This document shows, in pieces, positions 2,337-56,265 of a stretch of 64,000 nucleotides of DNA (position 1 is the stretch's first letter; every line of letters starts with the position of its first letter). This stretch comes from Acetobacteraceae bacterium. GTDB lineage: Bacteria > Pseudomonadota > Alphaproteobacteria > Acetobacterales > Acetobacteraceae. The notes under the pieces are model-generated. The model was not told the DNA's origin. It saw only the letters and a list, made by a program, of their open reading frames with translations, and did not search any database. The stretch covers positions 677 through 64,676 of the forward strand of contig JBEKNT010000001.1 in NCBI GenBank assembly GCA_049522565.1, given 5' to 3'. The position numbers and the translations under genes were made by a program.

Positions 2337-4199
<1,863 letters not shown>

Positions 4200-20365: not shown

Positions 20366-20392
20366 GCATGGTGAGCATGGCGGCTGCGCGGG

Positions 20393-23643: not shown

Positions 23644-23646
23644 ATG

Positions 23647-25196: not shown

Positions 25197-25207
25197 GAGT
25201 GCCGGGC

Positions 25208-29009: not shown

Positions 29010-29759
29010 ATGAGCCTCGCCGCTGACGCCAAGGGCTTGCCACTGTTCTACCGCCAGGTCCGCATGCTCAACACGCTGCGCGACCAGGACCTGCGCCTGA
29101 TGCCGCCGTCCGATTATGGATTCGCGGCCGGCAGCAATTCCATTCCGCTGGTGGCCGAGGAGTTCTTCGCCGCCCAGGCGCACTATCCCATCGTTTTCGC
29201 CGGCACCGAACACCCATCGCCGGTCGCGATCGTCGGACTGCGCGACAACGAGAACCTGTTCGTCGATGCCGACGGTACCTGGCGCGCCGACAGCTATCTG
29301 CCGCTGTATGTCCGCCGGCATCCCTTCATCTTCATCAAGGGCAATGACGGCACGTTGCACCTTGGTATTGACGCCGCCTCGCCGCGGCTGTCCGCGGATC
29401 GCGGGGAGCGGCTGTTCGATGCCAACCAGCCGACCGCGCTGACCAACGGCCTGCTCAAATTCTGCTCCGCGTTCAGCCGCCAGCACGACATCGCGGCGGC
29501 GCTCGGCGCGGCGTTGCATGCCCATGCGCTGCTGACGGAGTACCGTTTCGACGTCACCGCGGCCGGCCAGGCGCATCGGGTCGGCGGCTGCCGTGTGGTG
29601 GCGGAGGACCGGCTCGCCGCCCTGCCGGATGACGTCTTCCTCGAATGGCGCCGTGCCGGCTGGCTGCCGATGATCACCGCGCATCTGCTCTCGCTGCGGC
29701 AATGGGAAGCGCTCGGCCGGCTGGCCATGGAGCGCCCCGTTGCTTCGCTCGCCGCCTGA
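29010..29759 (+). CDS. SapC family protein (function unknown)
   Basis: I place the start at ATG 29010 (GGGGGA 9 nt upstream). IPLVAEEFFAAQAHYPIVFAG...PVAIVGLRDNENLFVDADGTWRADSYLPLYVRRHPFIF matches my recollection of the SapC-family N-terminal signature. Confidence 0.72.
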   Translation: MSLAADAKGLPLFYRQVRMLNTLRDQDLRLMPPSDYGFAAGSNSIPLVAEEFFAAQAHYPIVFAGTEHPSPVAIVGLRDNENLFVDADGTWRADSYLPLYVRRHPFIFIKGNDGTLHLGIDAASPRLSADRGERLFDANQPTALTNGLLKFCSAFSRQHDIAAALGAALHAHALLTEYRFDVTAAGQAHRVGGCRVVAEDRLAALPDDVFLEWRRAGWLPMITAHLLSLRQWEALGRLAMERPVASLAA

Positions 29760-44800: not shown

Positions 44801-47800
44801 AGCCGAACGGGAGCGGCGTGACCGCGACCGCGGATTCCTCCGGTGGCGGGGCGATCTCGGGGAACGGTGCGACGGCGGGAGCCTACGACAACAGCACGGT
44901 GGCCGCGCGGGTCGGCGAGGGCTCGACCGTGGATGCCGGCGGCACGCTGGCCATTCTGGCCACCGTATCGAACAGCGCGCAGGCGAATACCAACACGCTG
45001 TCGATTGGGGTGGTCGCGATCGGCGGACAGACCGCGACGGCGAATACCGAGGGTCAGGCGACGGCGGCGCTGGGCAACGGCACCACCGTGCGCGCCTTCG
45101 GACTGGAGGTGGAAGGCGCGGCCAACGACGCCTCGGATGCGACCAGCATCGCGGCGGCGGGCGGCATCTTCGGTACTACGGTCGGTGCCGAGGCCGATAC
45201 CGACGCCTCGCCCAAGGTGACGGCGAGCATCGGCTCCAACGCCAATGTCGCTGTGCTGAGCACGGTCGATGTCCTGGCGATCGCCGAGCCGTTCACCAAT
45301 GGCCTGGCGCAGGGCTCCACCGTTTCGGGCTTCTATGCAGGCGGCTCAAGCAACGCCAACAGCTCCGGCACGCCGGACGTGGAGGCCGAGATCGAGCAAG
45401 ACAGCGTCGTCAAGGCCGGCGGGGGCGTGCAGATCCTGGCGGAGGTGCCGACGATCGGCGAGATTTCCAACGGCACGTTCGACGCGTCCAACGGGACGGT
45501 CGTCAGCCTGGCCAACAACGAGTTCTACCTCGTCTCGCCGACGCTGCTGCAAACCGGCGACCAGGTGGTTTACGAGACCGATGGCGGGAAGCCGATCGGC
45601 GGCCTGACCGACGGCCGCACCTACAGCGTGATCAACGACGGCAACGGCATCAGCCTGGGGCAGACCTTCACCGGCGCGCAGGTGAATGCGGCGACCGGCA
45701 CCATCCAGTTCGCCGCGCCGGACGGGTTCATGACCGGCGACAAGGTGGTTTACAGCGCGAACGGCGGCACGCCGATCGGCGGCCTGGTCAGCGGCGAGAC
45801 CTACTATGTGCGGGTCATCAACCCCACCACCATCAAGCTGGCGACCAGCCTGGCGGAGGCGGAACAGGTCGGTGAAAGCTTCAACCCCACGCTGATCACC
45901 GGCGGCAACCTGATCACCCTGGCCAATAACGGCTTCACCAATGGCGAGGCGGTGACCTATCGCAGCACCGGCGCTGGGGTCGCCGGGCTGGTCAACGGCG
46001 ACACCTATTTCGTGCAGCGGGTGAACGCGAACCAGTTCCGGCTGTCGGCGCTGCCCAATGGTCCGGCGCTGTCGATCAGCCCGGGCTTCTTCACCGGTGG
46101 CCAGACGCTGGGCGCCGAGGGTGTGGCGATCGACGGCGCCGGCATCACCTCGCCGCAGAGCCTGACCTTCGACCTCACCTCGCTCGGCACCGGCGTCCAG
46201 CGACTGGCGGGCGTCGGCGGTGCGGCGGCGCTGCTGCCGTTCACGCCGAACGATACCTATGATGCCACCGCCAATGCATCGGGCGGCGCACTGGTCGGCA
46301 ATGTCGGCAGCCAGACGGATACCACGATCAACGGCACGACCACGGCGGTGATCGGCTCGAACACCACGGTGCAGAGCGGCGGCGAACTCACGATCAGCGT
46401 CACGGCGCAACGCCCCAGCACTGCGGTGGCGTCCGGGATTGGCGCCGGGCTTGTGGGCCTAGGCTCCGGCAGCGTGACGACCAACGACACCGAGAACACC
46501 AGCATCACGGTGGGGGACGGCTCCAGCCTCGTTGCCGGCCAGGATGTGATGATCGACGTCGATGGCGGTGTGGACGCCAACGCCTCCTCGCAATCGAATG
46601 GCGGGGGCGCGGTCAAAGTCGCCACCTCGAACACGACGGTCACTGTCGATCCGACGACCGGTATCTTCGTCGGTCAGGGTGCGCGCATCACTGCGGCGTT
46701 CCAGGTGACGCTGGGCGCACAAGGCGAAGTCGGCGGCCTGGACCAGGCAAGTTCCGGCGGTTTCGGTTTCTTCGCCTCCGACTCCGATTCCTACACCACG
46801 GTGACGATCGGTGCGCCAGTCAATGACGGGACCGATCCGGCGGTGCTGAGCGTCCAGATCGGGGACGGCGCCAACCTGTCCGGCGGCAACATCCTGCTGA
46901 TTGCCAGCTACGACGGGCTGAACCCGCAAGTCGACACGTACGCCGACGCCACCGGCGGCACGGTGTACCCGACCGCCATATCCAGCCTGAACATGGCAAC
47001 CAACGCGCTGGTCGATGTCGGCGCCGGCGCCATCCTGAGCGCGGCCAACCAGGTAACCTTGCTGACGAACTATGGCGCCGGCGGAACGTATACCCTGAGC
47101 GCGGTAACCGACCGGACGGCCGTGGTCGGCCACCAGGATGCCGGCGTGGGCGACTTCCAGCAGCTTGCCTCCAACATCGACGTCGAGGATGGCGCCGTCA
47201 TCACGGCGCATAATCTCCAGGCCTCTGCCACGATCGGCGCGTCGGAACCGAACATCGAGGCGCTGGAGGGCGGCTACAACGGTGACGAGCAGCCAGATAA
47301 CATCCAGCAGAGCGCTACGGAAATCCGCAACATCGTGTTCGATGGCGAGGCGGTGCTGACGGCCGGGCCGAGTCCCGTGCTGGTGGTGAACGAGTTCGGC
47401 CAGATCGCCTACGAGTACGGGGTCACGGCGTCGGTCTCGGGCGGCAATATCGTGGTCAACCCGATCACCGACACCAGCCCTGGCGTCGCCACCTTCAGCT
47501 CCGATGAGGGCTCGCAGTGGATGGCCAGCGGGAACGGCGTCGAGGGCATGCAGGAAGGCTCCGTCATCAGCGGCACGGAGGGCAGCATCACCTTCGTGGA
47601 TACCTTCCCGTCGGTGACGCTGGACAACGGCTCGGCGCTGAACATGGTGGTGAACGGCATCGATCCGGTGCTGCGCACGCCGGGTGCCGCGGTCAACGTC
47701 CAGCTCGACGATACCTCGCTGTTCAGTTTCACCCTGGCCAACGTGTTCCGGCCGACCACGATCACCGTCGCCAATACCGCGCCCACGGGCATCGGCAATC

Positions 47801-49029
47801 TGACGCTGACCGGCGATATCGAGGATCCGATCGGTGCGATCAGCCTGAGCGCCGCCGGCGGCAACATCGTGGCGTCGGGCAACGCGGAGCTGGTGCGGGG
47901 CGCGTCGGTTACCCTGGATGCCGGCGGCAACATCGGCACAGCGGCGCAACGGCTGACCGTGGATGTGGTGGACAGTCCGCAGGCCGGGATCACGCTGAAC
48001 GCCAGTGCCGGCGGCGACCTGAACCTCGCGGTGCAAGCGCGGCTGCGCGATCCGTCGGCCTTCATCTTCACGCCGACGCTGGGCGACCTTGTCGCGGGCG
48101 GCAGCATCAACCTCGATCTGTTGCAGCCGGTGCGCGACAACACGGTTGTGGGGCCGGAATACAAGGTCACGGTCTACGACCAGTCGCCGACCTACGGACT
48201 TTTGACGACCACGCACAACGAGAACGCCTGGCCGAACGACGTTGGCGGGCCGCAGCCGCTGCCGCCCGGCGTCTTCGCCACCGGGAGCACGCCGTACGCC
48301 GCGACCTACTCGATCGGCCTGCTGGAAGCGGGTGGCAGCATCAGCGTGATCGACCCGGGCTCGACCCCCATCGGGCTGGCCGCGAAGGTCGAGTTGTTCA
48401 CCGCGGGCGGCAGCATCAGCGCGACGATGAGCGGCGACATCACGCTGACCGAGACCACCGGCAACCTGCGCGTCGGCAAGATCGACTCGACGGGCGGCAG
48501 TGTGACGCTGACCGCGCTGGCCGGCAGCATCGTCGGCCCGGCACCCGGGGGCGCCGGGCAGCCGGCAAGTGTGATCGGCGACAATATCGCACTGACGGCG
48601 GCACAGGGCAGCATCGGCAGCCTGAACGACGCGCTGAATATCCAGTTGCTCGGGGGCAAGCTGGACGCGCTCGCGCGGAACGGCATCAACATCTACGACG
48701 TCTCGGGCGCCTTGCCGATCGACTCAGTCGCGGCCGGCGGCGCGGTACTGATTGGGACTGCGGGGGGGAACATCCTGGTGGCGCCCGGCGCCGCCGGCCC
48801 GGAGGTGGTGGGCCAGACGGTCGCGCTGACCGCCAAGGGTGGCATCGGCATCACGGGGAACCCGCTGGTCGTGCAGTCCGCCGCCCCGAACGGGGTCACG
48901 AGCAACGCAACCGGCCGCACCTACATCGACGAGGTCGAGGGCGTGGTGCTGCACGAGGCCGGGTTGACCTGGACGCTGGGTGACGGCGGCACCAGCGCCG
49001 GCAGAGTGAATTGGGCGAGCCTGCTTTGA
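29821..49029 (+). CDS. Giant (6402 aa) extracellular repeat protein with N-terminal LEPR-XLL-type motif; LktA-like filamentous-adhesin-type Ala/Gly/Thr/Val repeats
   Basis: Single uninterrupted 19,209-nt ORF. N-terminus is MAFPFLMAALRAHGERRQRRLAANRRQAEGRLVFEALEPRVLLSAD, with LEPRVLLSAD at 29929-29958. Recurring units of about 45-50 aa, e.g. AAGAAGGTVGIGGSVSVSIIANTVDATIANATVTAAGNVGIIADDQDTIDAYGG. Codon usage and GC3 are consistent with neighbouring genes. Confidence 0.93.
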   Translation: MAFPFLMAALRAHGERRQRRLAANRRQAEGRLVFEALEPRVLLSADALTVALSGDAAHPMAHDVVVEAVSQALPNIESATVQMVQVVDLAANDQVLASAPLGSVSGIKITSGTGDTSLTVATASFGTANVPAITFAGGNGNNTLAVTGSKTTDWNITGNDAGTVTGSAAITFTGVANLSGGAENTNVFTVTQDGALTGTLSGTPDGSAGGNDSLVFKSDTVTNAAFTAAGPHSGTIDMDGSVFTYAGLTPIIFSGNASNITITGTANTDDLTLADTNVAGQLEVASLNNSLESVTFARPSVSLTVDFGTGSNDSLQIGTVQLAGASLTVAGGNGTDSISVDANAYVSTRDTTGNALTAPSVGNSGDLSLSAETITVNTGAKLYANANSGFTSGDVTLDAGSQGGAGQTAAASIAVHGAQIVGGDVDLDSAAGATATITQQTLATLSLDATAQTAIDGASGILATVGDVQIDANVDVTGQVTANAAPLGSLNADAALALSDVTADGAATVSGTTVLGAAGAVDVHSGNTTSVTTLADGSTGGATAVGGAIALADVSTGSTAQLGTGVKVAATTVAVEADSADVVGTTANATAGGATANGAAAQAALAGATTPDGSVTVAAALAATTLKDTNTATSDATTVTTTGGFDVIADTSRLVDTGAIAIGVQGGPGVGAAVALNAISVSSSATLGDTSTIYGNADVDVGTLRTGDIFGAVALSGAGSTDVGVAGALAVNAVSDDAFAGIAAAAQVSLPTGSLTVGVGQDGDAITDALAFLNGASPDPGVGASVAIAPVHFSAEAGVQAGAQLSVGTASSATESDASFSVDAQRTITTVADGGVADGTATAAALALTVAQDGASAELDAGAVVTVQGNLTLTATQTSDVHTSGSAEAGATATVAAFGIVLDNTDATTAATVVAQDAVSLTATGQTASTTLATAGPVGAQDGGPNAAALIAAELGFIGNPPGVTLPTPATADGAFGVAAAMALGVAIGRVSATVLPETASKEAISAQQISLEAAGEVTATTRADASPIDLTSGRVDVGAALALQTGQAIIVAEVDSPISAPDIALLAEAAPGTGITPNTVAGLFTVQAIAGAGESDVGVAGAMAIAGDGITVQALLDSAATSTSSGVVVLAAVGDSTSNVDATALSAADGVGAGASFSLNVSDATVTAEIEDGGSVTGTPGLLLGANGGQNATTTAEGGTDAGTATGAAFALAVVTDEITAGLTTRATAAAGTAILRATGDTTATTTTTGAADGQYAAIGASLALGILVDDVSADVAGRLIATGPVTMTATGTNTQTTTADAGSLGAEDGSLSAGALLANQLALLNDPNGIIVPALTTGAGTVGVAAALSFGVDDATVETDISGRVLTEGDLTMTATGGTTAKSEASGATVDPSLDGTGVAAAVAVMVATPKVSARIDGDALAADATLTANMATPTGHDIESNAESGAGDPNTGVAGSFALTVAAPVTEAVIGGSGILETLPGGNVTLSATGASQIAADARAEILGPGRSGLGASVALDIALDDTHAMLDQGAQVLDANNLTLTAKGTYGSAAHAEAGDQSGGAAGAIAINVAPQDTEAEANPGPSLTLTGTLMLQAEQNQGSIADANGGSSDRGGGFGAALAVNAPVASTTALLDRGANVANAINVIADSTASAEAEATAGIKGGSDDGTADGLSAQWLGVAGTDGSTTPPTIPSISAALANGAQQLGLTLPEVDAAAALSVDAAFGTTSASIAGGDPIIAGGNVLVLATGGSTADSQADASAITTADAGAVGFGFAVDFDDQALDASIGAGTPVSAQSITVQATVPREQAQQASAEAMSGAGASDGIAGALALSLVDNSTEAQILSTAPITAPGFIVVEATGDTSSAATAGEDVNGTVAGTGISLAGNLMVDHTAANVIAGADLNSLGQIRIEADGTQSLQSESAGTATAGLGAVPASLTADVLLATTAASVGDGAKIDTGITGGTATQNLLVLADDSTSLNATAGSLGAGALAGAGAAAQFSDLLKQTTADMDGTVQVAGSVEVEAQSKEAGFTAADAGAMAAGVSVAGGAGVQMGDLLTHAAIDGDAHVRAVGDVVVTALDTTQMDVFAGAVNAAVAASAGAGIGAIGLMKTTEALIENNAVVDAEGEGAGTQVANGFTISFVPGSSIPGEVAKPFLPSALTDIFGILLNNPLHNLISPVGSIPSDDFSSQDRVATPTFTTVHGVAVTALSHDDLALQATGLGASDVAGLELSASGVVDNATTRAEIGAGALVDQSGLPSSTSQSVLVFADGDTQAMVIAGTDSISGLLAVGPAAALLAIDPDTIAFIGAGAKVSAIDDLTVQAVGTDDLLTDATDVVASDLSVAGSVDALVLGGETYAYVDANATVIAGGSVSIVANETSQSENVAGALSDGTSGPVAVGASAGISLVATDTEAWIASDAHVTALGLETDQVPGIETDPTSATDFTVIEGVSVLATTNDLVMDLVANGSAGGFAAFIGSGAGVVIGNTTAAYIGTGAVVHAGAFGLNGLPLANATPATVSVGAVDNTHSFDGIASVVDGDLAISGAADAGVMRDATSATIDAGATIKASGDVDVAAWSTEVVDSFVGGLGLTSGGIELNVSASVYSIGAVAGSDLLDPLSVVGGPGSLESYLDGLLQGMVAQAGQGIVGILNQYAAGVGGQQAAATQLAALTPNDPVTGALTASNLGKIGTLANIDDAKVTAYGNVGVTAVDAVTPDLDTSFTFSYSFGSNDQNLNLSLDGGLLAGRANATASITGGSDVTATDNVAVQSQASTTQTVNSTYAFNSSSDNSSALVDDSRLTAGGDVTVNAQMNGYNKYSGILPGINGLKIRTSYNNEQNTTIASVTGHSVIDADGTVTVNAFSTSEDHTIADGATLLDQGFEGSFTLGVALAWNQIGDTTSATITDSNALAASVAVTATADTEDFTVALGIGDGDNNSVSLGGSGAENLMNDIVSASIEGATVLAPGGVSVLSTDDESLTAITGAAVARTNYGISAAVSLNTSEDVVSAEIGDSTVTTDSGGIQVVAVGTGNMSSLAAGVAQGKNLAGGVGAPVDTLGMLILADVTKGSVLTTGAGVTVTATGNGTIMTLAGGVAIALNQVGVGAAVSINNASDSVTAQIVGSQVTAGGAVDVEALSDPTIEALAFGFAYAPTIAVGGSVAYSYIDDTTTAEVDNSGKTGSKIYAGDGAITVMATDAPYIEVLTGAIAASSGEVAVAASVSINNVNDTVTVGVNDATLTAPVGPIIVQGVASPNILSIAVGGSGDETFAGVGAVADDNVGSTMTVTVGTATAVLTAPVVTVDGADNSNIGSAAYGVAGSGTVSIAGAVATNTITGGMVVSLDSDGVIDAQVADVEATNAATIEVMTGAADGAGTASGGAATSVNAITDDATSQVVGGKINAADTSVTASQTGTIEALATIGSGAGTADLVASVTTNNIYDAATATISSGAVINTGSGGSLTLSSTNGGDIESLSGAINGAGAAAINGAVANNNISLLTSTPGGANTTLENSTVTGGSANVDATDSATILSVAISGGGASTAAVGGSVTKANGNITATVAVTNNKETLTGALDIAASDSGDITTAAGNAEGAGTFAGGAAIAINTLNNNVTATLTGGNANVGSLSVTATANGSLGAVGAIGGGAGTVALDVSDTENTITGSLAAAITGGAVVTANGAVTVGATDQSQIESLSGAADGAGTVGGGAARAHNRIGAVASDPIASDPGDADPDEPSDATPSQAATTATIDDGSFVEGESVAVTAAFTGSIETAAIAGSGAGTAAIAGALTDNLIGDQVTSSISGANTTVFAAGVGQGQITVSATDGATIKSLAGSATGAGVVAVGVSAAVNKLRNAADASIDAANVWSLSGSVAVIASENGLIESISVAGSGGGDVALDAAVSLNDIADDIGATVDDSALVRAAQDITLHASDGGTIESSADGLAISGGFSGAGAVATNEIGDQITAGVTDATLRAIDDSVFILTDDSAGIENFSFAAGAGSIGLTATVSVNEIDNVLMAEIDASTVTAGNDVALDSTDNSSIGSIASQFSFGVLVGAGGAAAYNQIENSVGATIDDGSVVTASSGDVLVEAQEQATIQTLAAGAAGGTVGIGGSVSVSIIANTVDATIANATVTAAGNVGIIADDQDTIDAYGGELAGGFVGAAGSVAVVTLESQITASVENATVAARGITPALIMPDIDQTTGAAVNGSAGGVVVAARDLENAKVIAVTGAGGLGAIAGTVSDVHTATVTDAHITGSQINSASKPGSGVTVHASQATIVTTTLGAIAGGFVAVGGAVQVTTIDNRTQAYIADQVTGRETPGTATAVYANTINVSTATYENVSPTTVGVTVGAVAISGSVAYTNIASSSDAFVRDALLQAKNGAASITVAAEDNASIGTFAGDVSAGFVGAGAAVAVSEIGDTTLATLEGARLDANGAITVSASSTGNITDVAAGAAGGAVGIAGAVLVDSISTETEAATESYGGAATLINQDPGFAGTPGRDGGSLQSVTIEATGNETLDGTAGAAAIGLGAAGAGIQVGSIADLVAANVEGGTVITAAGNVSVTAKDQRNASSDAIAVAGGLLALSGAFSIITIGGAFDPSSVAQVNAGDTGSGPTNDQQLVSNANSSIDEEPAASGISTNQQTTAEGPSATVAQNAVGKLNQPAPTVGDNLFATPTNVSGTFATVDSTGSGGAPRITAGGNIAISASDGFSLNVSDGSGGGGLVSLGLSVGLATVTDTTTASATGGAVLAAGGDITVDANDASSSLSGVGVTTGSVGAIAVGGAVGDATLNLDVTAELGPDVTVTRAAGVDINTTQTANLAANGFDIAGGLAALGDVTTSTTIGGTVVAEVGQGSDLGSAATPIGTLTIAASGSDIGTASTTAGSGGVVAGESNSADATVNPDFSAVLDSDTTSDVAGSVAIVVQTSGVATTSAEGVTIGAGAIGLSDAEATLAIGDSARIGDDAMLTAGGNVTISAEHTTTADPLGQPNGSGVTATADSSGGGAISGNGATAGAYDNSTVAARVGEGSTVDAGGTLAILATVSNSAQANTNTLSIGVVAIGGQTATANTEGQATAALGNGTTVRAFGLEVEGAANDASDATSIAAAGGIFGTTVGAEADTDASPKVTASIGSNANVAVLSTVDVLAIAEPFTNGLAQGSTVSGFYAGGSSNANSSGTPDVEAEIEQDSVVKAGGGVQILAEVPTIGEISNGTFDASNGTVVSLANNEFYLVSPTLLQTGDQVVYETDGGKPIGGLTDGRTYSVINDGNGISLGQTFTGAQVNAATGTIQFAAPDGFMTGDKVVYSANGGTPIGGLVSGETYYVRVINPTTIKLATSLAEAEQVGESFNPTLITGGNLITLANNGFTNGEAVTYRSTGAGVAGLVNGDTYFVQRVNANQFRLSALPNGPALSISPGFFTGGQTLGAEGVAIDGAGITSPQSLTFDLTSLGTGVQRLAGVGGAAALLPFTPNDTYDATANASGGALVGNVGSQTDTTINGTTTAVIGSNTTVQSGGELTISVTAQRPSTAVASGIGAGLVGLGSGSVTTNDTENTSITVGDGSSLVAGQDVMIDVDGGVDANASSQSNGGGAVKVATSNTTVTVDPTTGIFVGQGARITAAFQVTLGAQGEVGGLDQASSGGFGFFASDSDSYTTVTIGAPVNDGTDPAVLSVQIGDGANLSGGNILLIASYDGLNPQVDTYADATGGTVYPTAISSLNMATNALVDVGAGAILSAANQVTLLTNYGAGGTYTLSAVTDRTAVVGHQDAGVGDFQQLASNIDVEDGAVITAHNLQASATIGASEPNIEALEGGYNGDEQPDNIQQSATEIRNIVFDGEAVLTAGPSPVLVVNEFGQIAYEYGVTASVSGGNIVVNPITDTSPGVATFSSDEGSQWMASGNGVEGMQEGSVISGTEGSITFVDTFPSVTLDNGSALNMVVNGIDPVLRTPGAAVNVQLDDTSLFSFTLANVFRPTTITVANTAPTGIGNLTLTGDIEDPIGAISLSAAGGNIVASGNAELVRGASVTLDAGGNIGTAAQRLTVDVVDSPQAGITLNASAGGDLNLAVQARLRDPSAFIFTPTLGDLVAGGSINLDLLQPVRDNTVVGPEYKVTVYDQSPTYGLLTTTHNENAWPNDVGGPQPLPPGVFATGSTPYAATYSIGLLEAGGSISVIDPGSTPIGLAAKVELFTAGGSISATMSGDITLTETTGNLRVGKIDSTGGSVTLTALAGSIVGPAPGGAGQPASVIGDNIALTAAQGSIGSLNDALNIQLLGGKLDALARNGINIYDVSGALPIDSVAAGGAVLIGTAGGNILVAPGAAGPEVVGQTVALTAKGGIGITGNPLVVQSAAPNGVTSNATGRTYIDEVEGVVLHEAGLTWTLGDGGTSAGRVNWASLL

Positions 49030-49043: not shown

Positions 49044-49098
49044 CCTCCCCCTCGGCTTGACCCGCGTCGCGGCGCAAGCCCGCAAAGCGAGGGGGAGA
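49044..49098. repeat. Intergenic palindromic repeat, family C (CTCCCCCTCG...CTTGACCCGCGTCGCGGCGCAAGCCC...CGAGGGGGAG)
   Basis: About 80% identical by eye to 51016-51078. Terminal inverted arms CTCCCCCTCG / CGAGGGGGAG. Confidence 0.7.
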
Positions 49099-49133: not shown

Positions 49134-51002
49134 ATGCTGGAACCGGCGCTGTGGCGTCAGCTTGCGGACGCGGCCGAGCCGGCGGCGCGGGCCGCGTCCT
49201 GGGCGGCACTGGTAACCAGGCTGATCCCGGGAGCGTATCAGGCGACGGTGGTCCTGGCCGGACCCGAGGGCTTTGCCCCCATCGCGCTCTGGCCGGCGGG
49301 CCAGCCGCCGGGGAACCTGCTGATGGCGGCGGTCGAGGCGGCGCTGGAACAGCGTGCGGGTGCCGTGCGCCTGGGACGCGCCGCCGGCGCAGGGCGGGAC
49401 GCGGCGGCCGGGGAGGGTGCGGCGCGCAACGGCGGAGACCGGGAGGGCGCAGTCGCCCTGCCCCTGCTCGCCGGCACCGCGTTGCTGGGTGCCGCGGCGG
49501 TAGCCCTCACCGGCACCGATGACGCCCGGATCCGTGCCGCCATGCGGCACCTGCAATGGGGCGCCGGCTGGCTGCGCGGCAGCGCCGGCGCGACGGACAA
49601 CGATGCGAGCCCGGGTCCGGAGTCGCACCAGGTCCTCGGCCCGCACCAGATCCTGGAATTGCTCGCCGCGGTGGTCGAGGAGACCAGCTTCCGTGCCGCG
49701 GCCCAGCGCGTGGTGACCGAGACCGCGATCCGCTTCGGTTGCGACCGGGTCAGCCTTGGGCTGTTGCGCGGCACCACGATGAAGGTCGATGCCATCTCGC
49801 ACAGCGCTGTGGTGGAAGCCCGCAGCGGCACCACGCGCTTGCTGGCGGACGCCATGGCCGAGGCGGTGGACCAGCGGGCACTGCTGCGCTTTCCGCCCAC
49901 CACCGAGGACGCGCTCGAGCCGTTGGCGCGGCACGCCCAGGAGCAGCTCGCCGCCCCGAGCGGCGCGGCCATTCTGACCATCCCGCTGTTGCAGCAGGAC
50001 CGGGCGATCGGCGCGCTGCTGTTGGAACGGCCGGGCGCGCATCCTCTGGCGGCGGTGGACATCGCGCGGCTGGATGCGCTGGCCGCCTTGGTCGGGCCGG
50101 TGCTGGCGGAGAAGTGGCGCGACGACCGCTGGGTGGCGACCAAGGTCGGCGAGAGCCTGGCGCGCCAGACCCGGCTGCTGTTGGGTCCGACCCACGTCGC
50201 ACGCAAGCTCACGATGCTTGCGATGGTGCTGTTCGCCGTGCTCGCCGGCACCTGGCACGGCGAATACCACATCATCGCCGAGGCCCGCCTGGAGGGCACC
50301 GTCCGCCGCAGCATCGTGTCCGGCCTCGATGGCTTCCTGCGGGAGGCGCCGGTGCGCGCCGGCGACCGGGTGCATGCCGGCGACCTGCTGGCAGCGCTCG
50401 ACGACCGGGACCTGACGCTGGAACGGTTGCGCTGGACGACCGAGCGTCAGCAACGGCAGTTCGAACTGGAACGCGCCATCGGCGACCGCCGGCGCGCCGA
50501 GACCAACATCCTCCAGGCGCAGCTCGCCCAAGCGAACGCCCAGGTCGAGCTGGCGGATGCCCAGCTCGCCCGTACCCGGTTCGTGGCCCCGTTCGATGCG
50601 CTGGTGGTGGCCGGCGACCACAGCCAGTCGATCGGCGGCGCGGTCCGCCGGGGCGACGTGTTGTTCGAACTGGCCCCGCTGGAGGACTGGCGTGTCCTGC
50701 TGGAGGTCGAGGAGTCGCAGGTCGCGGATGTGCGGCCGGGCCAGCACGGCAGGCTGGTGATCGCCGCGATGCCGTATCAGGGCCTGGACTTCACCGTCAC
50801 CCGCGTCACGCCGGTCGCCGAGGTCAACGACGGCCGTTCCGTGTTCCGGGTGGAGGCGGCGCTGGCCGAGGCATCGCCCCGGCTGCGGCCGGGCATGCAG
50901 GGCGTTGGGCGGATCGAGGCCGGGCAGCGGCTGGTGTCCTGGATCTGGACCCGCCGCATCGCGGAACAGGTGCGGCTGCTGTTCTGGCAGGTGTTCCCGT
51001 GA
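49134..51002 (+). CDS. Tandem GAF-like domains + TM segment + HlyD-type membrane-fusion (periplasmic adaptor) protein
   Basis: I place the start at ATG 49134; track start 49011 overlaps the giant gene and the repeat. GAF-like region: VVTETAIRFGCDRVSLGLLRG...ILTIPLLQQDRAIGALLLERPG...LDALAALVGPVLAEK. TM segment: LTMLAMVLFAVLAGTW. HlyD-like region: VRAGDRVHAGDLLAALDD, coiled coil, RFVAPFDALVV, GRSVFRVEAAL. Confidence 0.8.
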   Translation: MLEPALWRQLADAAEPAARAASWAALVTRLIPGAYQATVVLAGPEGFAPIALWPAGQPPGNLLMAAVEAALEQRAGAVRLGRAAGAGRDAAAGEGAARNGGDREGAVALPLLAGTALLGAAAVALTGTDDARIRAAMRHLQWGAGWLRGSAGATDNDASPGPESHQVLGPHQILELLAAVVEETSFRAAAQRVVTETAIRFGCDRVSLGLLRGTTMKVDAISHSAVVEARSGTTRLLADAMAEAVDQRALLRFPPTTEDALEPLARHAQEQLAAPSGAAILTIPLLQQDRAIGALLLERPGAHPLAAVDIARLDALAALVGPVLAEKWRDDRWVATKVGESLARQTRLLLGPTHVARKLTMLAMVLFAVLAGTWHGEYHIIAEARLEGTVRRSIVSGLDGFLREAPVRAGDRVHAGDLLAALDDRDLTLERLRWTTERQQRQFELERAIGDRRRAETNILQAQLAQANAQVELADAQLARTRFVAPFDALVVAGDHSQSIGGAVRRGDVLFELAPLEDWRVLLEVEESQVADVRPGQHGRLVIAAMPYQGLDFTVTRVTPVAEVNDGRSVFRVEAALAEASPRLRPGMQGVGRIEAGQRLVSWIWTRRIAEQVRLLFWQVFP

Positions 51003-51015
51003 CGGTAGGGAAGAT

Positions 51016-51078
51016 TTCTCCCCCTCCCCCCAACCTTGATCCGCTTCGCGGCTCAAGCCCACAAGGGGAGGGGGAGAA
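51016..51078. repeat. Intergenic palindromic repeat, family C
   Basis: Perfect 14-nt terminal inverted arms TTCTCCCCCTCCCC (51016-51029) and GGGGAGGGGGAGAA (51065-51078). Core CTTGATCCGCTTCGCGGCTCAAGCCC. Confidence 0.75.
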
Positions 51079-51114
51079 GACTTGCCTTTCTGCCCCGATG
51101 CCGGGCTCCCTCTG

Positions 51115-53346
51115 ATGTCAGCATCGTTGTTCAGCCCCGACTGGTATCGCGTTGCCGATCTTCGCCCACGGCTGCGGCCGCGCGCGGCGCTGCACCGGCG
51201 CGAAATGCGCGGCCGGCTATGGCATCTCGCGCAGGATCACCAGAGCGGCCGGTTCTACCGGCTGTCGCCCGCGGCGTATCTGATGGTCTGCCTGCTGGAC
51301 GGCCGGCGGACGCTGCGGGAGGCGTGGGAGATGGTCGGCCGCCGGCATGGCGCCGCCCAGCCGAGCCAGGAGGAAACCATCCTGTTGCTGGCCCAGCTCC
51401 ACCGCGCCGACCTCCTGCTGGGTGAGCTGCCGCCCGATATCGCCGAGATCGCGCGGCGCGGCGAGCGGATGCAGCGCCACGCCTTGCTGATGCGGCTGCG
51501 CAACCCGCTCGCCTTGCGGCTGCCGCTGTTCAACCCGGACCGCTTCCTGGACCACACCATGAAGCTGGTGCGCCCGATCTTCTCGCTCCCGGGCTTGCTG
51601 CTCTGGCTGGCGCTGGTCGGCACCGGCATCGTGCTGGCTGTGGTGCACCGCGCGGAGCTCACCGCGGATGTGCTGGACCGTGCCCTGACGCTGCACGGCA
51701 TCACCCTGGTGCTGCTGGCCTATCCGCTGGTGAAGGCGGCGCACGAATTCGGCCATGCCTATGCCTGCAAGCGCTGGGGTGGCGCGGTGCACGAGATGGG
51801 CGTGATGTTGCTGGTGCTGTTTCCGGTGCCGTACGTCGATGCCAGCTCGGCCACGGCGTTCCCCCGCATCTGGCAACGCGCCCTGGTCGGCGCCGCCGGC
51901 ATCATGGTGGAGCTGGCACTGGCCGCGGTCGCGATGATGGTGTGGGTCGAGGCCAGCACAGGCGCGGTGCGCGCCACGGCCTTCAACGTCATGCTGATCG
52001 GCGGTGTCTCCACCCTGTTGTTCAACGGCAATCCGCTGCTGCGGTTCGACGGCTACTACGTGCTGTGCGATTTGATCGGCCTGCCGAACCTGGCGCAACG
52101 CGGCAGCCGCTACATGCTCTACCTGGTGCAGCGCTACGGCTTCGGTCAGGCGACGCTGCACAGTCCGGCCGAGACCGCGGGCGAGAAACGCTGGCTGGTC
52201 GGCTACACGCTGGCCTCCGTCTCCTACCGCATCGTGCTGACCCTGGGCATCGCCTTGCTGCTGGCCTCCCGGTTCCTGCTGGTGGGTGCATTGCTCGGCT
52301 GCTGGAGCGTGGGCTCGCTGGTGGTCTGGCCGGTGTTGAAGGGCGTGCTGCATGTCGCGCGTGCGCCCCGGCTGGCGGGGCGGCGGCCGCGAGCGCTGCT
52401 GGTCGCGGGGTTGCTGGCCGGGGTGCCGGCGCTGCTACTGTTCGGCCTGCCGGTCCCGTACGGCACGCTCGCGCAGGGCGTGGTGCAGGTGCCGGAAGGC
52501 GCGATGCTGCGGGCCCCCACCGAAGGCGTGGTGCGGCGGGTTCTCGCGACTCCCGGAAGCCGGCTGCACCAGGGCGATCCCATTCTGGAGCTGGAGGAAC
52601 CGGCCCTGCCTGCTGCGTTGGCGGTGGTGGAAGCGCAGCGCGATGAGCTGCGGCTGCGGCTGGACGCCGTGCTGCTGACCGACCGGGTCTCGGCCGAACT
52701 GCTGCGCGAGCAGGTGCGGCGCGCCGAGGCGACGGTCGCGCTCGGCCGCGCAAGGCTGGCGGAGCTGATCGTCCGCGCCCCACGCGATGGCGTGCTGGTG
52801 CTGCCGGAGGCGAGCGATCTGCCGGGCCGCTTGCTGCATCGCGGCGACGTGCTGGGCGACGTGCTGGAAGCCGGCGACGTCAGCATCCGCGTCGTGGTGC
52901 CGCAGGACCGGATCGACCTGGTGCGTGGCCGCACCAAGGGGGTGGAGGTGCGGCCGGCCTATGCGGTGTTCCGGCCGATGGCAGCGACGATTTCGCGCGA
53001 ATTGCCGGGTGCGGTACGGGAGATGCCCAGCGCGGTGCTCGGGCTTGCCGCCGGCGGCGAGATCGCCACCGACCCCACCGATGCATCCGGTCGCCGCGCG
53101 TTCGAGCAAACCTTCCTGGTCGATGTGGTGCCGGTCGGGGCGGCGGCGAGCATGGCGCTGGCCGGTGTGACGGACCATGCCGCATCGCCCGGCGGCATGG
53201 ACAGCACAACGCCCCCTGGCGTGGCGGATAGTGGCGTCTGGATCGGCGGGCGTGCCTATGTCCGCTTCGACCATGGGGAGGAACCGTTGGGATGGCGCCT
53301 GCTGCGCGGGCTGCGCCAATTGTTCCTGCATCGCCTCGATGTTTGA
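51115..53346 (+). CDS. Fusion protein: PqqD-like N-terminal region + polytopic M50 (site-2 protease) metalloprotease + C-terminal HlyD-type adaptor domain
   Basis: I place the start at ATG 51115 (MSASLFSPDWYRVADLRPRLR); the track uses TTG 51082. HEFGH at 51742-51756 and FNGNPLLRFDGYY are S2P/M50 signatures, with multiple hydrophobic TM stretches. N-terminal FYRLSPAAYLMVCLLDGRRTLREAW...LLLAQLHRADLL is PqqD-like. C-terminal LRAPTEGVVRRVLATPGSRLHQGDPILELE, a coiled coil and IVRAPRDGVLVL are HlyD-like. Confidence 0.8.
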   Translation: MSASLFSPDWYRVADLRPRLRPRAALHRREMRGRLWHLAQDHQSGRFYRLSPAAYLMVCLLDGRRTLREAWEMVGRRHGAAQPSQEETILLLAQLHRADLLLGELPPDIAEIARRGERMQRHALLMRLRNPLALRLPLFNPDRFLDHTMKLVRPIFSLPGLLLWLALVGTGIVLAVVHRAELTADVLDRALTLHGITLVLLAYPLVKAAHEFGHAYACKRWGGAVHEMGVMLLVLFPVPYVDASSATAFPRIWQRALVGAAGIMVELALAAVAMMVWVEASTGAVRATAFNVMLIGGVSTLLFNGNPLLRFDGYYVLCDLIGLPNLAQRGSRYMLYLVQRYGFGQATLHSPAETAGEKRWLVGYTLASVSYRIVLTLGIALLLASRFLLVGALLGCWSVGSLVVWPVLKGVLHVARAPRLAGRRPRALLVAGLLAGVPALLLFGLPVPYGTLAQGVVQVPEGAMLRAPTEGVVRRVLATPGSRLHQGDPILELEEPALPAALAVVEAQRDELRLRLDAVLLTDRVSAELLREQVRRAEATVALGRARLAELIVRAPRDGVLVLPEASDLPGRLLHRGDVLGDVLEAGDVSIRVVVPQDRIDLVRGRTKGVEVRPAYAVFRPMAATISRELPGAVREMPSAVLGLAAGGEIATDPTDASGRRAFEQTFLVDVVPVGAAASMALAGVTDHAASPGGMDSTTPPGVADSGVWIGGRAYVRFDHGEEPLGWRLLRGLRQLFLHRLDV

Positions 53347-55378
53347 CGCGGCCCCGCCATCCCGGGCGCTGCCCGCGCTCTGGCGCTACCCGGAGCGTGC
53401 CGACGCCGAACGCGCACCGCTCGACCGGTGGCTGCACCAACACGTGGGTGGCGCGATGCTGCGTTGTACCGGTGGATTGCGGCGGCGGCGCCTGGCCGGC
53501 TTCGCGCGCGCGGTGACCGTGACCGGGGCGGCGTCGGCCGCACTGGATGACGCGGCGCTGGCCGCGGCGGCGCGGGAGGCCGGCATCGCGCTGCGCCGCC
53601 GCGCCACGGATCGTGCCGCCCTGGTCTGGCTGTTCGCCCTGGTGCGGGAGGCCGCTTCCCGCAGCCTCGGCTTCCGGCCGTACGAGACCCAGGTGATGGG
53701 CGCCGCGGCGCTGTGGCGCGGCGCGGTGGCGGAGATGGCGACCGGCGAGGGCAAGACCGCCGCGGCCGGGCTGTGCGCGGCGGCGGCGGCGCTGGCCGGC
53801 CGTGCGGTCCACGTCATCACGGTGAACGATTACCTGGCCGGGCGTGATGCCGCGACCATGGCACCGCTGTTCCAGCGCCTGGGCCTGTCGGTGGCCGCGG
53901 TGACGGGGGGGATGTCGGCGGACGCCCGCCGCGCGGCCTATGCCGCCGCCATCTGCTACGGCACCAGCAAGGAGATCGTCTTCGACCATCTGCGCGACCG
54001 GCTGGCGCTGGGGCCGGAGCGTGGCGCGCTGCGGCTGCGGCTGGCCGGCTTTGCCGGGGCGCCGCCGAAGCTGCTGCTGCGCGGCCTGGACTTCGCGATC
54101 GTGGACGAGGCGGACAGCGTGCTGGTCGATGCGGCTCGCACGCCGCTGATCCTGTCCGGCGAACAGGAGTCGCAGGTCGATGAGGAGACCGCTGCCTTGG
54201 CGTTGGCGCTGGCCGACCGGCTGGAGGCCGGCCGCGACTGGCAGCGCCTGCCGGGTATGCTCAGCGCCCACCTGACCGAGGCGGGCGAGATCCGGCTGGC
54301 CGCGCTGGTCGAGGCCGAACCGGGATACGCCGGGTCCGGGCTCCGGGCATCCGGCCCTTGGGCATCCGGTCCTTGGGCGATACCGCGGCTGCGCGAGGAG
54401 CTGGTGCGCCACGCGCTGGCCGCCCGGCACCTGTTTCGCGCCGGCGAGCACTATCTGGTCCGCGACGCCCGCACCGTGATCATCGATGAATTCAGCGGCC
54501 GCCTGATGCCCGACCGGCAATGGGCGGACGGGCTGCACCAGATGATCGAGGCGAAGGAAGGTTGCGCGCTGACCCGTCGGCGGGTCACGCTGGCGCGGCT
54601 GACCTATCAGCGCTTCTTTCCGCGCTATCGGCACCTGTCCGGCATGACGGGAACCGCTGCCGAAGTCGCCGGCGAGCTTTGGGCGGTCTACGGGTTACCG
54701 GTTGCCCGGATTCCGACCCATCGGCCATCGCGCCGCGTGCGGGTGCCGGACCGCCTGCTGGCGGACGCCACCGCCAAGTGGGCTTCCGTCGCTGCCCATG
54801 CCGCCGCGTTGCGGGCAGCCGGCCGTCCCGTCCTGATCGGCACCCGCACGGTGGCGGCGGCGCAGCGGGCGAGCCTCGCGCTGACGGCGGCGGGACTGCC
54901 CCATGCGGTACTGAGCGCCGCGCAGGACGCTGCCGAGGCGGCCACCATCGCCGAGGCCGGCACGGTCGGCCGGATTACGGTTGCCACCAACATGGCCGGG
55001 CGCGGCACCGACATCAGGCTCGCACCCGAGGTCGCCGCTGCCGGCGGGTTGGCGGTCTTGCTCACCGAACGCCACGAGGCTGGGCGCATCGACCGCCAGC
55101 TTGCCGGCCGCGCGGCCCGCCAGGGCGACCCCGGGAGCGTGGCCGCGATCCTGGCGCTGGATGACCCGCTGCTGGAGGCGGCAGGGCTGCTGCCGCGCCT
55201 GCTGGCGCGCTGCGGCGGGTGGTTGCGCGGCTTCCGGGTGGGGGCGCGATTGGCTGGCTGGGCGTTACGCCGGGCGCAGAAGAGCCAGGAACGCGCCCAT
55301 GCGGCAGCCCGCCAGGCATTGCTGCGGCAGGACCGGATGCGCGCCGAGCGGTTAGGTTTCGCGGGAGTAGGGGAATGA
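53339..55378 (+). CDS. SecA-like ATPase paralogue (NBD1-PPXD-NBD2 motor), truncated soon after NBD2
   Basis: I place the start at ATG 53339, which overlaps the upstream stop (ATGTTTGA). RPYETQVMGAAAL..AEMATGEGKTAAAGL, VHVITVNDYLAGRDA, ICYGTSKEIVFDHLRD, FAIVDEADSVLVDAARTPLILSG, HYLVRDARTVIIDEFSGRLMPDRQWADGLHQMIEAKEG, LSGMTGTA, TNMAGRGTDIRL and TERHEAGRIDRQLAGRAARQGDPG align motif-by-motif with canonical SecA. Confidence 0.85.
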   Translation: MFDAAPPSRALPALWRYPERADAERAPLDRWLHQHVGGAMLRCTGGLRRRRLAGFARAVTVTGAASAALDDAALAAAAREAGIALRRRATDRAALVWLFALVREAASRSLGFRPYETQVMGAAALWRGAVAEMATGEGKTAAAGLCAAAAALAGRAVHVITVNDYLAGRDAATMAPLFQRLGLSVAAVTGGMSADARRAAYAAAICYGTSKEIVFDHLRDRLALGPERGALRLRLAGFAGAPPKLLLRGLDFAIVDEADSVLVDAARTPLILSGEQESQVDEETAALALALADRLEAGRDWQRLPGMLSAHLTEAGEIRLAALVEAEPGYAGSGLRASGPWASGPWAIPRLREELVRHALAARHLFRAGEHYLVRDARTVIIDEFSGRLMPDRQWADGLHQMIEAKEGCALTRRRVTLARLTYQRFFPRYRHLSGMTGTAAEVAGELWAVYGLPVARIPTHRPSRRVRVPDRLLADATAKWASVAAHAAALRAAGRPVLIGTRTVAAAQRASLALTAAGLPHAVLSAAQDAAEAATIAEAGTVGRITVATNMAGRGTDIRLAPEVAAAGGLAVLLTERHEAGRIDRQLAGRAARQGDPGSVAAILALDDPLLEAAGLLPRLLARCGGWLRGFRVGARLAGWALRRAQKSQERAHAAARQALLRQDRMRAERLGFAGVGE

Positions 55379-56265
55379 GACGTCTGTTGTTGCCGGGCTC
55401 GCGGATCGCCGGCGTCGCTCGTGCCCGTCTGGTGCCACGCTGCGCCCGCCTTGTGGGCGCCATCCTCGTGTGCACCATGCTGGGGTCCGGCATCCGGGTC
55501 CCGGCTGCCCTGGCGGAGGGGAGTGACTTCGACTGCGTGATGGATCCGTCGCTTCGGGTGAATGTCGGCAGCGCGATCCCCGGCCTGCTGGAAGCGGTAC
55601 TGGTCCAGCGCGGCGACCGGGTGCATGCCGGCCAGGTCGTCGCCCGGCTGGTTTCGGACGTCGAGGCAGCGCAGGTCGCGCTCGACCGGCTGCGCGCTGC
55701 CAGCACGGCGGAGATCGAGGCGCGCGAGGCGCAGTTGACCCTGTCGCGCCGCCAGTTGGAGCGAACTCAGGAGCTGTACCAGCATCAGGTGGCGACCGCG
55801 GAGCGGCTGGACGAACTGCGTGCCCAAACCGAGATCAACGACCGCGAATTGCGGCTGGCACGCCAGGCGCAGGAAGTGACCCGGCTGGAGTTGCAGCGCT
55901 CCGAAGCCACATTGCGGCAGCGGGAAATTCGCAGCCCGATCGATGGGCTGGTGACCGAACGGCTGATGACCGGCGGCGAATATGTTCACCAGGAAGCGGT
56001 GATCCTGCGGCTGGCGCGGTTGGACCCGCTGTATGTGGAGACCTTCCTGCCGGTGCGACTCTACCCGCTGCTGCATATCGGCCTGGACGCGGTGATCGAG
56101 CCGGCGGCACCGATCGGCGGCAGGATCCCGGCCCGGGTTGCCGAGGTGGACCAGGTGTTCGACGCCGCCAGCGGCAGTTTCGGCGTCCGGCTGGAATTGT
56201 CGAACGCGGACGGGCGGCTGCCGGCGGGCCATCGCTGCAAGGTCAGCTTTCAGTTGGACGAATAG
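55375..56265 (+). CDS. HlyD/RND-type periplasmic adaptor (membrane-fusion) protein
   Basis: I place the start at ATG 55375, which overlaps the SecA-like stop (ATGA). N-terminal signal/anchor LVGAILVCTMLGSGIRVPAALA. VQRGDRVHAGQVVARL, coiled coil, IRSPIDGLVTE, GSFGVRLELSN. Confidence 0.82.
   Translation: MRRLLLPGSRIAGVARARLVPRCARLVGAILVCTMLGSGIRVPAALAEGSDFDCVMDPSLRVNVGSAIPGLLEAVLVQRGDRVHAGQVVARLVSDVEAAQVALDRLRAASTAEIEAREAQLTLSRRQLERTQELYQHQVATAERLDELRAQTEINDRELRLARQAQEVTRLELQRSEATLRQREIRSPIDGLVTERLMTGGEYVHQEAVILRLARLDPLYVETFLPVRLYPLLHIGLDAVIEPAAPIGGRIPARVAEVDQVFDAASGSFGVRLELSNADGRLPAGHRCKVSFQLDE

Follow-up and report, generated by a model that had tools for sequence, protein, structure and literature searches.

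How proteins of 6,000 to >30,000 residues are exported when they have neither a Sec signal peptide nor a type I C-terminal signal is an open question. Giant genes have been listed as oddities since 2008, and the export route given in recent preprints is still a guess. The question is raised by the stretch of DNA analyzed here (64,000 nt of an Acetobacteraceae bacterium, contig JBEKNT010000001.1, positions 677 to 64,676, ~70% G+C; hereafter the window), in which a 19.2-kb open reading frame (ORF) is followed directly 3′, on the same strand, by a cassette of four genes. These encode three adaptors of the HlyD or membrane-fusion protein (MFP) type and a SecA-like ATPase, with one adaptor fused to a core of the M50 or site-2 protease (S2P) type and to a PqqD-like RiPP recognition element (RRE; RiPP, ribosomally synthesized and post-translationally modified peptide). 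The gene content and order, their conservation, the integrity of the motifs, the predicted folds, and the association with a cargo tag together point to a conserved, envelope-spanning secretion module, type-I-like and leader-dependent, that is probably dedicated to giant proteins with an N-terminal LEPR-XLL leader. What we infer from them is export itself, the direction in which the chain is threaded, the cleavage of the leader, stoichiometry, and the conduit. The features in question are as follows.

29821..49029 (+): giant, repetitive 6,402-aa protein, the presumed cargo (ORF; G+C at third codon positions, GC3, 0.89)
29914..29976 (+): LEPR-XLL leader motif (aa 32-52, ...LVFEALEPRVLLSADALTV...), the presumed N-terminal export/recognition tag (NCBIfam NF012209)
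49134..51002 (+): gene 1, adaptor 1 (GAF-MFP), with a GAF region, one transmembrane helix, and a periplasmic HlyD/MFP part (Pfam, hydropathy)
51115..53346 (+): gene 2, with a PqqD-like RRE, a seven-helix M50/S2P-type core, and a periplasmic MFP part (Pfam, NCBIfam, AlphaFold2)
53339..55378 (+): gene 3, a 679-aa SecA-like ATPase with nucleotide-binding domains 1 and 2 (NBD1, NBD2), a preprotein cross-linking domain (PPXD), and one long scaffold helix (Pfam, alignment, AlphaFold2)
55375..56265 (+): gene 4, adaptor 3, a 296-aa MFP with an N-terminal signal/anchor and a long α-hairpin (TIGR01730, RND_mfp)

A first-pass annotation, made from the sequence alone, had described four same-strand genes packed tightly behind the 19.2-kb gene. 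ORF coordinates and codon-position GC agree with it: the four ORFs have a GC3 of 0.81-0.88, as real genes do, which rules out an artefact of gene calling such as high-GC shadow ORFs of the opposite strand. Both of its gene overlaps can be read in the sequence, the one between the ATG at 53339 and the stop at 53346 as ATGTTTGA, with the TGA ending at 53346, and the one between the ATG at 55375 and the stop at 55378 as ATGA at 55375-55378. Orthologue alignments start at residue 1 for all four chosen starts.

The SecA-like ATPase

Gene 3 matched SecA_DEAD (1e-89), SecA_PP_bind, and P-loop_SecA, which bears out its earlier description as a paralogue of the SecA motor. It has what defines such a motor, namely an NBD1/NBD2 DEAD motor with intact Walker A, DEAD, and arginine-finger motifs, and a PPXD; the Walker A sequence GEGKT, VDEADS, TGT, GRGTD, and the arginine fingers are invariant in 32 homologues. 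The AlphaFold2 model (pLDDT 86.5, pTM 0.84) had only SecA and SecA2 structures as top Foldseek matches, with the highest TM-scores, 0.74-0.75, to SecY-engaged, clamp-closed SecA (5eul, 6itc, 3dl8); structure 5k9t was also among the matches. Identity to Bacillus subtilis SecA in the fold comparison was 36-37% over the aligned part, which covers SecA residues 23-589 only, and the last element of the model is a single 42-residue helix (633-674). Neither the alignment nor the model showed a helical wing domain, a two-helix finger, or a C-terminal tail. Gene 3 stops within the scaffold helix and therefore has no wing domain and no two-helix finger of the kind that inserts into SecY. Judged by model and alignment, gene 3 is a complete motor and preprotein clamp with a stub of the scaffold helix, and its extent is close to that of the Escherichia coli SecA fragment N68.

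Curated models place the protein outside both named families. It scored 496.7 against a cut-off of 814 for NF009538 (SecA) and, for the SecA2 models, 398.8 against 725 (TIGR04221), 409.6 against 930 (TIGR03714), and 432 against 1085 (TIGR04397); being shortened and under all of these cut-offs, it is a member of neither SecA nor SecA2. Its homologues number in the thousands, with all 120 listed being 623-690 aa long, and they occur in Acetobacteraceae, Methylobacterium, Bradyrhizobium, Aminobacter, Ideonella, Syntrophaceae, Methylomirabilis, and Planctomycetota. RefSeq and the NCBI annotation pipeline (PGAP) misname the motor “prepilin peptidase” (locus L084, 22222-24138; L086, 23074-25098; also P0027, P0044, and P0060).

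The RRE-M50-adaptor fusion

Gene 2 had been annotated as a PqqD-like domain joined to a polytopic M50/S2P protease and a HlyD adaptor. This architecture stands, and the coordinates given for its HEFGH motif are exact; the PqqD match is weak (PF05402, E 0.0044, 17.8 bits against a Pfam cut-off of 23.4) and the Peptidase_M50 match falls just under its cut-off (25.6 bits against 27.2). The defining features of an M50/site-2 protease are all present, with a HExxH in a transmembrane helix, a downstream third-ligand motif of the NxxPxxxxDG type, and a polytopic core. HEFGH (aa 210-214, nt 51742-51756) and NPLLRFDG (aa 306-313) both lie in predicted transmembrane helices, and H210, E211, H214, N306-L309, and D312 are invariant in 40 homologues. 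Seven transmembrane helices are predicted from the model and a hydropathy scan (158-177, 193-220, 252-279, 284-304, 355-386, 388-416, and 424-444), and this odd number would leave the RRE in the cytoplasm and the MFP part in the periplasm. Among curated models, the nearest to the M50 core is NCBIfam daptide_HExxH (NF041824; 7.8e-46, 156.9 against a cut-off of 300, thus below it), and the score against NF058609 was 28.6 with a cut-off of 225.

Few parts of the fusion are as conserved as the RRE domain. Its invariant residues include W10, Y11, R12, V13, R21, R28, R32, W36, and D41, and PF05402 is precomputed for many homologues of gene 2. In the AlphaFold2 model (pLDDT 81.5), aa 24-97 form three β-strands (24-31, 34-41, and 46-50) followed by three α-helices (52-60, 67-81, and 85-97), a β3-α3 order that fits the PqqD pattern. 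The MFP part spans aa 446-740 with an α-hairpin at 497-549. The best Foldseek matches of the whole model, MexA, AcrA, and MacA, are dominated by this part, and so speak for the MFP and not for the M50 core. At E ≤ 1e-30, the fusion family comprised 4,172 clusters at 50% identity; the best 150 were nearly all ~715 aa, with a few shorter fragments. Database names for the fusion include “PqqD family peptide modification chaperone”, “peptidase M50”, “biotin/lipoyl-binding protein”, and “HlyD family efflux transporter periplasmic adaptor subunit”; the naming of this family is thus inconsistent and in part mistaken.

The two further adaptors

Gene 1 had been described as a tandem GAF protein with a transmembrane helix and a HlyD part. 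One clear GAF domain (aa 188-321), the helix, and HlyD_3/HlyD_D23 with a coiled-coil hairpin were all found, and the second GAF domain holds only in part. The N-terminal 170 aa have no Pfam match in the window protein and GAF-family matches in 4 of 19 orthologues, which partly supports reading them as a divergent GAF-like domain. Because the single transmembrane helix lies at about aa 355-373, the GAF region should be cytoplasmic. Gene 4 reached 138.9 bits for TIGR01730 against a cut-off of 94.9 and also matched Pfam HlyD_D23 and Biotin_lipoyl_2, and this RND_mfp score confirms it as a third adaptor of the HlyD/RND type. In total, three window proteins carry HlyD_3/HlyD_D23, the HlyD-family MFP component of a type I secretion system (T1SS). 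The claim that the cassette comes with no exporter of the ATP-binding cassette (ABC) type and no pump of the resistance-nodulation-division (RND) or major facilitator superfamily (MFS) type also held over the full 64 kb, whose sole ABC protein is a soluble ABC-F (2337-4199).

Conservation of the module

Relatives of the M50 fusion were sought in one genome per species with an alignment of the fusion as query; they were found in at least 458 species genomes from at least five phyla, and 80 loci were fetched. Across 83 loci, from Alpha-, Beta-, and Gammaproteobacteria, Desulfobacterota, Acidobacteriota, Omnitrophota, and Nitrospirota, the gene order was nearly invariant. Components were counted by tblastn, restricted to loci long enough to judge.

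GAF-MFP directly 5′ of the fusion: 75/76 loci
SecA-like gene adjacent, 3′ of the fusion: 68/72 loci
Fourth-gene MFP present: 53/68 loci
DUF3467 upstream: 49/74 loci
SapC within 10 kb of the module: 14/46 full loci

The first-pass annotation had named two findings that would speak against its idea, a lack of synteny in relatives and an ABC or RND partner encoded just outside the clusters. The four families proved syntenic, and no such partner is encoded there: a search for ABC nucleotide-binding motifs, calibrated on the ABC-F protein of the window, found them in 2 of the 83 loci, and clustering of the flanking ORFs returned no ABC, RND, or MFS family and no SecY-like, secY2, or asp-like gene among the recurrent neighbors. 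Chance juxtaposition of the four genes is ruled out by the synteny counts. The contexts of three independently chosen SecA-like homologues all read DUF3467, GAF-MFP, M50 fusion, SecA-like, MFP, and two of the three have giants of 10,790 and 14,100 aa upstream.

Of the module's parts, the third adaptor is the least constant. The idea that the cassette is self-contained stood only in part, as SapC and DUF3467 are further recurrent partners and a TolC gene is adjacent in few loci. SapC lies between the M50 fusion and the SecA-like gene in seven loci (L033, L053, L054, L067, L081, L082, and L086). A TolC family gene follows the last adaptor directly on Methylosinus pMSC49a, and TolC-like ORFs adjoin the module in two Omnitrophota loci (L039 and L044). 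Neither DUF3467 nor SapC had a significant PDB match by sequence search, and hhalign of DUF3467 against E. coli SecB gave a probability of 0.4% in what is a weak comparison with an approximate SecB sequence.

Clustering of flanking ORFs also returned a radical SAM protein, an O-methyltransferase, and two proteins of unknown family as recurrent extras besides DUF3467, with radical SAM and methyltransferase genes nearby in 13/46 and 10/46 loci, respectively. In 13 of the 46 full loci (for example L001, 21-5306; L002, 1315-5218; L089, 829-5224) they form a cassette 5′ of DUF3467, composed of radical SAM, O-methyltransferase, and ~363- and ~385-aa proteins of unknown family, to which Methylobacterium currus adds a Trp-halogenase-like protein. 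This cassette may serve post-translational modification of the cargo or its leader. In L007 (6930-8225) and five related loci, from Mesorhizobium and relatives, the gene of a 431-aa OmpA-like/autotransporter-like β-barrel protein separates DUF3467 from the SapC/giant gene, which is divergently oriented, and in these genomes the protein may provide an alternative outer-membrane component. In L088 (13129-22004), the module ends with SapC and has no fourth-gene MFP, and an extracellular contractile injection system cluster (sheath, tube, VgrG-like spike, PAAR, and baseplate) follows directly.

The giant protein and its leader

The upstream giant protein had been put forward as the cargo, and support comes from its adjacency in roughly half of the long loci and from a shared LEPR-XLL tag. 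A giant same-strand gene lies 5′ of the module in about half of these loci, and in ~35 loci an ORF of >1,200 aa on the same strand extends past the upstream edge of the locus and has its stop shortly 5′ of the DUF3467 or GAF-MFP gene. The giants reach 8,847 (L084), 9,289 (L088), 10,790 (L002), 12,918 (L086), and 14,100 aa (L003). On Methylosinus pMSC49a the order is a 26.5-kb gene, DUF3467, MFP, “PqqD family protein”, “prepilin peptidase” (the SecA-like motor), MFP, and TolC family protein. On a Pseudosulfitobacter plasmid it is a 38.8-kb gene, HlyD, site-2 protease, SapC, SecA-like, and MFP, with the giant named “LEPR-XLL domain-containing protein”, a PGAP name for a module-linked giant.

The protein of the window is rich in A, G, T, V, S, and D, acidic, and free of cysteine. 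It had no Pfam match, HemolysinCabind included, and no RTX repeat family was detected; tandem NCBIfam LktA_tand_53 repeats were found at 1e-65 and 9e-69. Its N-terminus is basic (MAFPFLMAALRAHGERRQRRLAANRRQAEGRLVFEALEPRVLLSAD...), and a hydropathy scan showed no hydrophobic signal-peptide core there, hence no Sec signal peptide. By its sequence, the protein looks secreted but of neither Sec nor T1SS type, being Cys-free, acidic, and repetitive and having no signal segment or RTX family.

The leader places the giant in the LEPR-XLL family (NF012209, 31.3 bits against a cut-off of 17). A tag with the consensus F/V-[DE]-x-[LM]-E-x-R-x-L-L-[SN]-A stood at residues 34-70 in every giant N-terminus that lay within the fetched sequence, and none of the giants with a visible N-terminus had a Sec signal peptide. 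As a regular expression, the tag had 9 matches in 1.35 million ORF residues, 8 of them at giant N-termini, and none in the reversed control. Tag-bearing giant ORFs lie beside the module in L007, L010-L012, L044, L061, L081, and L085, the holders including four Mesorhizobium/Aquamicrobium loci and the Omnitrophota locus L044 (FEAMESRILLSAN), and the Methylosinus pMSC49a giant carries it too (...RRAKIIFDTLEPRVLLNADV). A profile of nine leaders run against a set of 5.8 billion proteins returned only fragments of ≤175 aa and is uninformative on cargo diversity.

In L044 (6096-22910, JAFGTC010000218.1), the order is TolC-like, MFP, DUF3467, GAF-MFP, and M50-MFP, then the giant ORF with its leader, and no separate SecA-like gene lies within the fetched 10 kb. 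As C-terminal SecA domains have been published for Omnitrophota giants, the motor of this locus may be fused to the cargo.

A model for export and its alternatives

We propose that the basic, non-hydrophobic leader of the cargo (MAFPF...R-rich...FEALEPRVLLSAD) would be bound in the cytoplasm by the PqqD-type RRE of the M50 fusion. Such RREs are the standard leader-binding domain of RiPP pathways. The truncated SecA-type ATPase, as the putative export motor, would clamp the unfolded and possibly still nascent chain and thread it from N- to C-terminus; an N-terminal cargo tag implies N-to-C and not C-first transport. The chain would cross an inner-membrane assembly of the polytopic M50 core and the transmembrane anchors of the adaptors, which is the candidate conduit. 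The intramembrane HExxH/Asp site, predicted near the cytoplasmic face, would clip the leader, in parallel with the C39 domains of bacteriocin ABC exporters and the YydH/daptide-type M50 proteases of peptide maturation. Three different α-hairpin adaptors, two of them tethered to GAF or to RRE-M50, would form a mixed periplasmic ring and dock to a TolC-type duct, whose gene belongs to the operon in some genomes and would lie at another site in this one. SapC and DUF3467 would help in the cytoplasm, perhaps as chaperones or targeting factors.

Several points weigh against this model. No known protein-conducting pore is found among the parts of the module, and M50 proteases are not known as channels. 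The E. coli SecA fragment N68 hydrolyzes ATP but does not translocate. The M50 and PqqD matches of gene 2 are below the Pfam gathering thresholds, and leader binding by the RRE and leader cleavage are pure conjecture. A TolC gene is absent from the 64-kb window, in which tblastn with the Methylosinus TolC found no homologue, and from most loci; DUF3467 is missing in the window, and the fourth gene in some loci such as L088. Some loci, such as L001 of Methylobacterium currus, have no giant gene within 10 kb.

Because the channel is missing from the parts list, two other explanations are kept alive. In the first, which we consider unlikely, a SecA2-like accessory SecA feeds the giant to the housekeeping SecYEG, with the M50 fusion as a dedicated signal/leader peptidase and the adaptors and TolC completing the outward step. 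Export of very large glycosylated adhesins by accessory SecA2 systems is established, and the window has four glycosyltransferase genes upstream; the gene 3 model superposes best on SecY-bound SecA, and no other inner-membrane channel is evident. However, gene 3 has neither the two-helix finger nor the wing domain and lacks most of the SecY-contacting scaffold, while the leader has no hydrophobic core of the kind that Sec signal peptides need. The conserved neighbors moreover include no secY2 or asp-like gene, and SecA2 models score gene 3 far below their cut-offs.

The second explanation, which strikes us as improbable, is one of processing, anchoring, or quality control, comparable to the control of LapA by LapG/LapD or to regulated intramembrane proteolysis. 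The M50 fusion and adaptors would cleave, tether, or release the giant, the SecA-like protein would be an unfoldase or extractor, and a distant canonical T1SS would carry out the export. S2P-family enzymes are classically signaling or processing proteases, GAF domains are typically sensory, and a Chlorochromatium preprint credits sapC/tolC/hlyD type-1-like genes with the export of the LEPRxLL giants it describes. Yet the giants have no C-terminal RTX/T1SS signal region, no ABC exporter is linked to them, and three MFPs and an operon TolC are hard to explain if there is no conduit. A maturation and export cassette for small RiPP-type peptides (RRE, M50 leader protease, and MFP), beside which the giant would lie incidentally, is very improbable despite the similarity to daptide and YydH/LiaK leader proteases, the PGAP name “PqqD family peptide modification chaperone”, and the radical SAM and methyltransferase genes near some loci, as both the giant neighbor and the shared leader are found again in different phyla, no conserved small ORF that could be a precursor was found except DUF3467, and the ABC transporters that RiPP exporters use are absent here.

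Comparison with known systems

The secretion module that we favor resembles the T1SS of giant adhesins and RTX proteins (HlyB-HlyD-TolC; LapB-LapC-LapE). Both have α-hairpin HlyD/MFP adaptors, a TolC-family duct (in the Methylosinus operon), and a huge, repetitive, Cys-free cargo that has no Sec signal peptide and is encoded beside the transporter. Unlike a T1SS, the module has a SecA-family motor and no ABC transporter, its cargo carries the N-terminal LEPR-XLL tag and not a C-terminal signal with RTX repeats, and its three adaptors differ from each other, two being fused to cytoplasmic domains, with a fused M50 and RRE in addition. Chemically different MFPs in one periplasmic ring have a precedent in TriA-TriB-TriC-OpmH, though there the inner-membrane partner is an RND pump and the substrate a small molecule.

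The closest functional analogy is with bacteriocin and RiPP exporters. In peptidase-containing exporters (CvaA-CvaB-TolC, PCAT1) and with M50 leader proteases (B. subtilis YydH, daptide MpaP-type), a leader is recognized and cleaved by a protease of the export complex, with an MFP partner; the module would scale this logic to megadalton cargo with a different motor. Those cargos are <100 aa as opposed to 6,000-14,000 aa, and the C39-ABC fusion is replaced by a metalloprotease-MFP fusion with a SecA-like energizer. The module is not a daptide or YydH system, its scores being under the cut-offs and its cluster holding no small precursor or ABC gene.

SecA and SecA2 systems (mycobacterial SecA2, and SecA2/SecY2 for serine-rich adhesins) share with gene 3 the DEAD motor, the preprotein cross-linking domain, and all ATPase motifs, and SecA2, too, is a SecA paralogue devoted to very large adhesins and encoded near glycosyltransferases. 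In contrast, gene 3 is always encoded with MFPs and the M50 fusion, with no SecY2/Asp partner, and lacks the wing, finger, and C-terminal tail. SecA domains are also tied to giants in Omnitrophota, a phylum in which the module occurs too (L039 and L044): SecA DEAD/preprotein-binding domains with no scaffold or wing have been reported inside giants of Omnitrophota and Actinobacteria and proposed to export the giant itself (West-Roberts et al., bioRxiv 10.1101/2023.11.21.568195). Those SecA-like domains are contained in the giant polypeptide, whereas the motor of the module is a separate protein of 660-690 aa, and the M50-MFP and GAF-MFP partners and the LEPR-XLL leader are not described in that preprint. 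In the Chlorochromatium preprint, LEPRxLL is reported with sapC and tolC and export is assigned to type-1-like genes; a look-up of the neighbors of Cag_1676 gave no result.

Novelty and significance

No description of the module was found in the full-text literature, subscription journals being outside this coverage, and none of the four proteins has a model of its own in NCBIfam release 20.0. Both agree with the first-pass view that no system of this composition had been described. The parts of the assembly are all from known families, and its logic resembles that of tripartite type I and bacteriocin export. The module recurs beside LEPRxLL giants in hundreds of species and is probably an undescribed export machine for giant surface proteins. 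On a narrow balance, we would go further and regard it as an unrecognized type of secretion system that is widespread in diderm bacteria, in which a SecY-independent truncated SecA, an RRE-M50-adaptor, and a GAF-adaptor act N-first and possibly co-translationally through an adaptor/TolC tunnel, with the leader removed in transit.

If so, this would be the surface route for many of the largest bacterial proteins, including the LEPRxLL giants of Chlorochromatium, Salipiger, Neptuniibacter, Mesorhizobium, and Omnitrophota. SecA-type ATPases would become a new class of energizer for tripartite envelope assemblies, a SecA motor would be able to work without SecY, and RiPP-style leader recognition and cleavage would reach megadalton cargo. 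Thousands of database entries would be corrected, in which the motor is called “prepilin peptidase” or “preprotein translocase subunit SecA” and the fusion “PqqD family peptide modification chaperone”. The result is a concrete candidate machine with a defined N-terminal tag, open to genetics in the culturable Methylorubrum, Mesorhizobium, Rhizobium/Ensifer, Salipiger, and Neptuniibacter.

Intergenic elements and neighboring genes

Three further features of the window lie close to the cassette.

28947..29759 (+): SapC family protein (Pfam SapC, 5.3e-61)
49045..49097 (+): palindromic element, copy 1, a hairpin between the giant gene and gene 1 (folding free energy -49.4 kcal/mol, z-score -3.15)
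51018..51076 (+): palindromic element, copy 2, a compound hairpin in the 112-nt gap between genes 1 and 2 (-57.6 kcal/mol, z-score -4.24)

A palindromic repeat had been noted in the gap at 51003-51114, where it was found again, and the copy at 49045-49097 had been overlooked. The GC-rich element (CTCCCCCTC...GAGGGGGAG, with an inner hairpin) has 2 matches in the 64 kb against 0 expected, both in intergenic gaps of the giant-gene operon. As both copies are without a T-run, we do not call them terminators; the element could be an RNA stabilizer, a processing site, or a repetitive extragenic palindromic (REP)-like element. A promoter and terminator scan inside the cassette gave nothing above background.

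Downstream of the cassette are unrelated cysD/cysNC-like and TRAP transporter genes. Upstream, on the same strand, the order is four glycosyltransferases, a small PqqD protein, a PEP-CTERM protein, a PrsT-like TPR protein, a 2OG-Fe(II) oxygenase, SapC, and the giant gene. The SapC protein is probably cytoplasmic, because a scan showed neither a hydrophobic segment nor a signal peptide. The glycosyltransferase series (19196-25477, +) consists of a GT2+TPR protein with weak SunS-like similarity, a Mannosyl_trans3, an Anp1 whose C-terminal part is HprK-related-kinase-A-like, and a GT1 that resembles PEP-CTERM/XrtA stp1; these families are eukaryote-like. The stand-alone PqqD protein after them (92 aa) is a second RRE, directly 5′ of the 2OG oxygenase-SapC-giant genes, and the glycosyltransferase and PqqD genes might modify the giant protein. 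The 292-aa protein at 25570-26448 (+) carries repeats of the GPIGSNLG type and, at its C-terminus, a PEP-CTERM sorting domain (TIGR02595, 19.6 bits against a cut-off of 16), and the TPR protein at 26424-27755 (+) resembles the XrtA/PEP-CTERM system protein PrsT, below cut-off. The PEP-CTERM and PrsT-like genes suggest that an exosortase-linked locus adjoins that of the giant gene.

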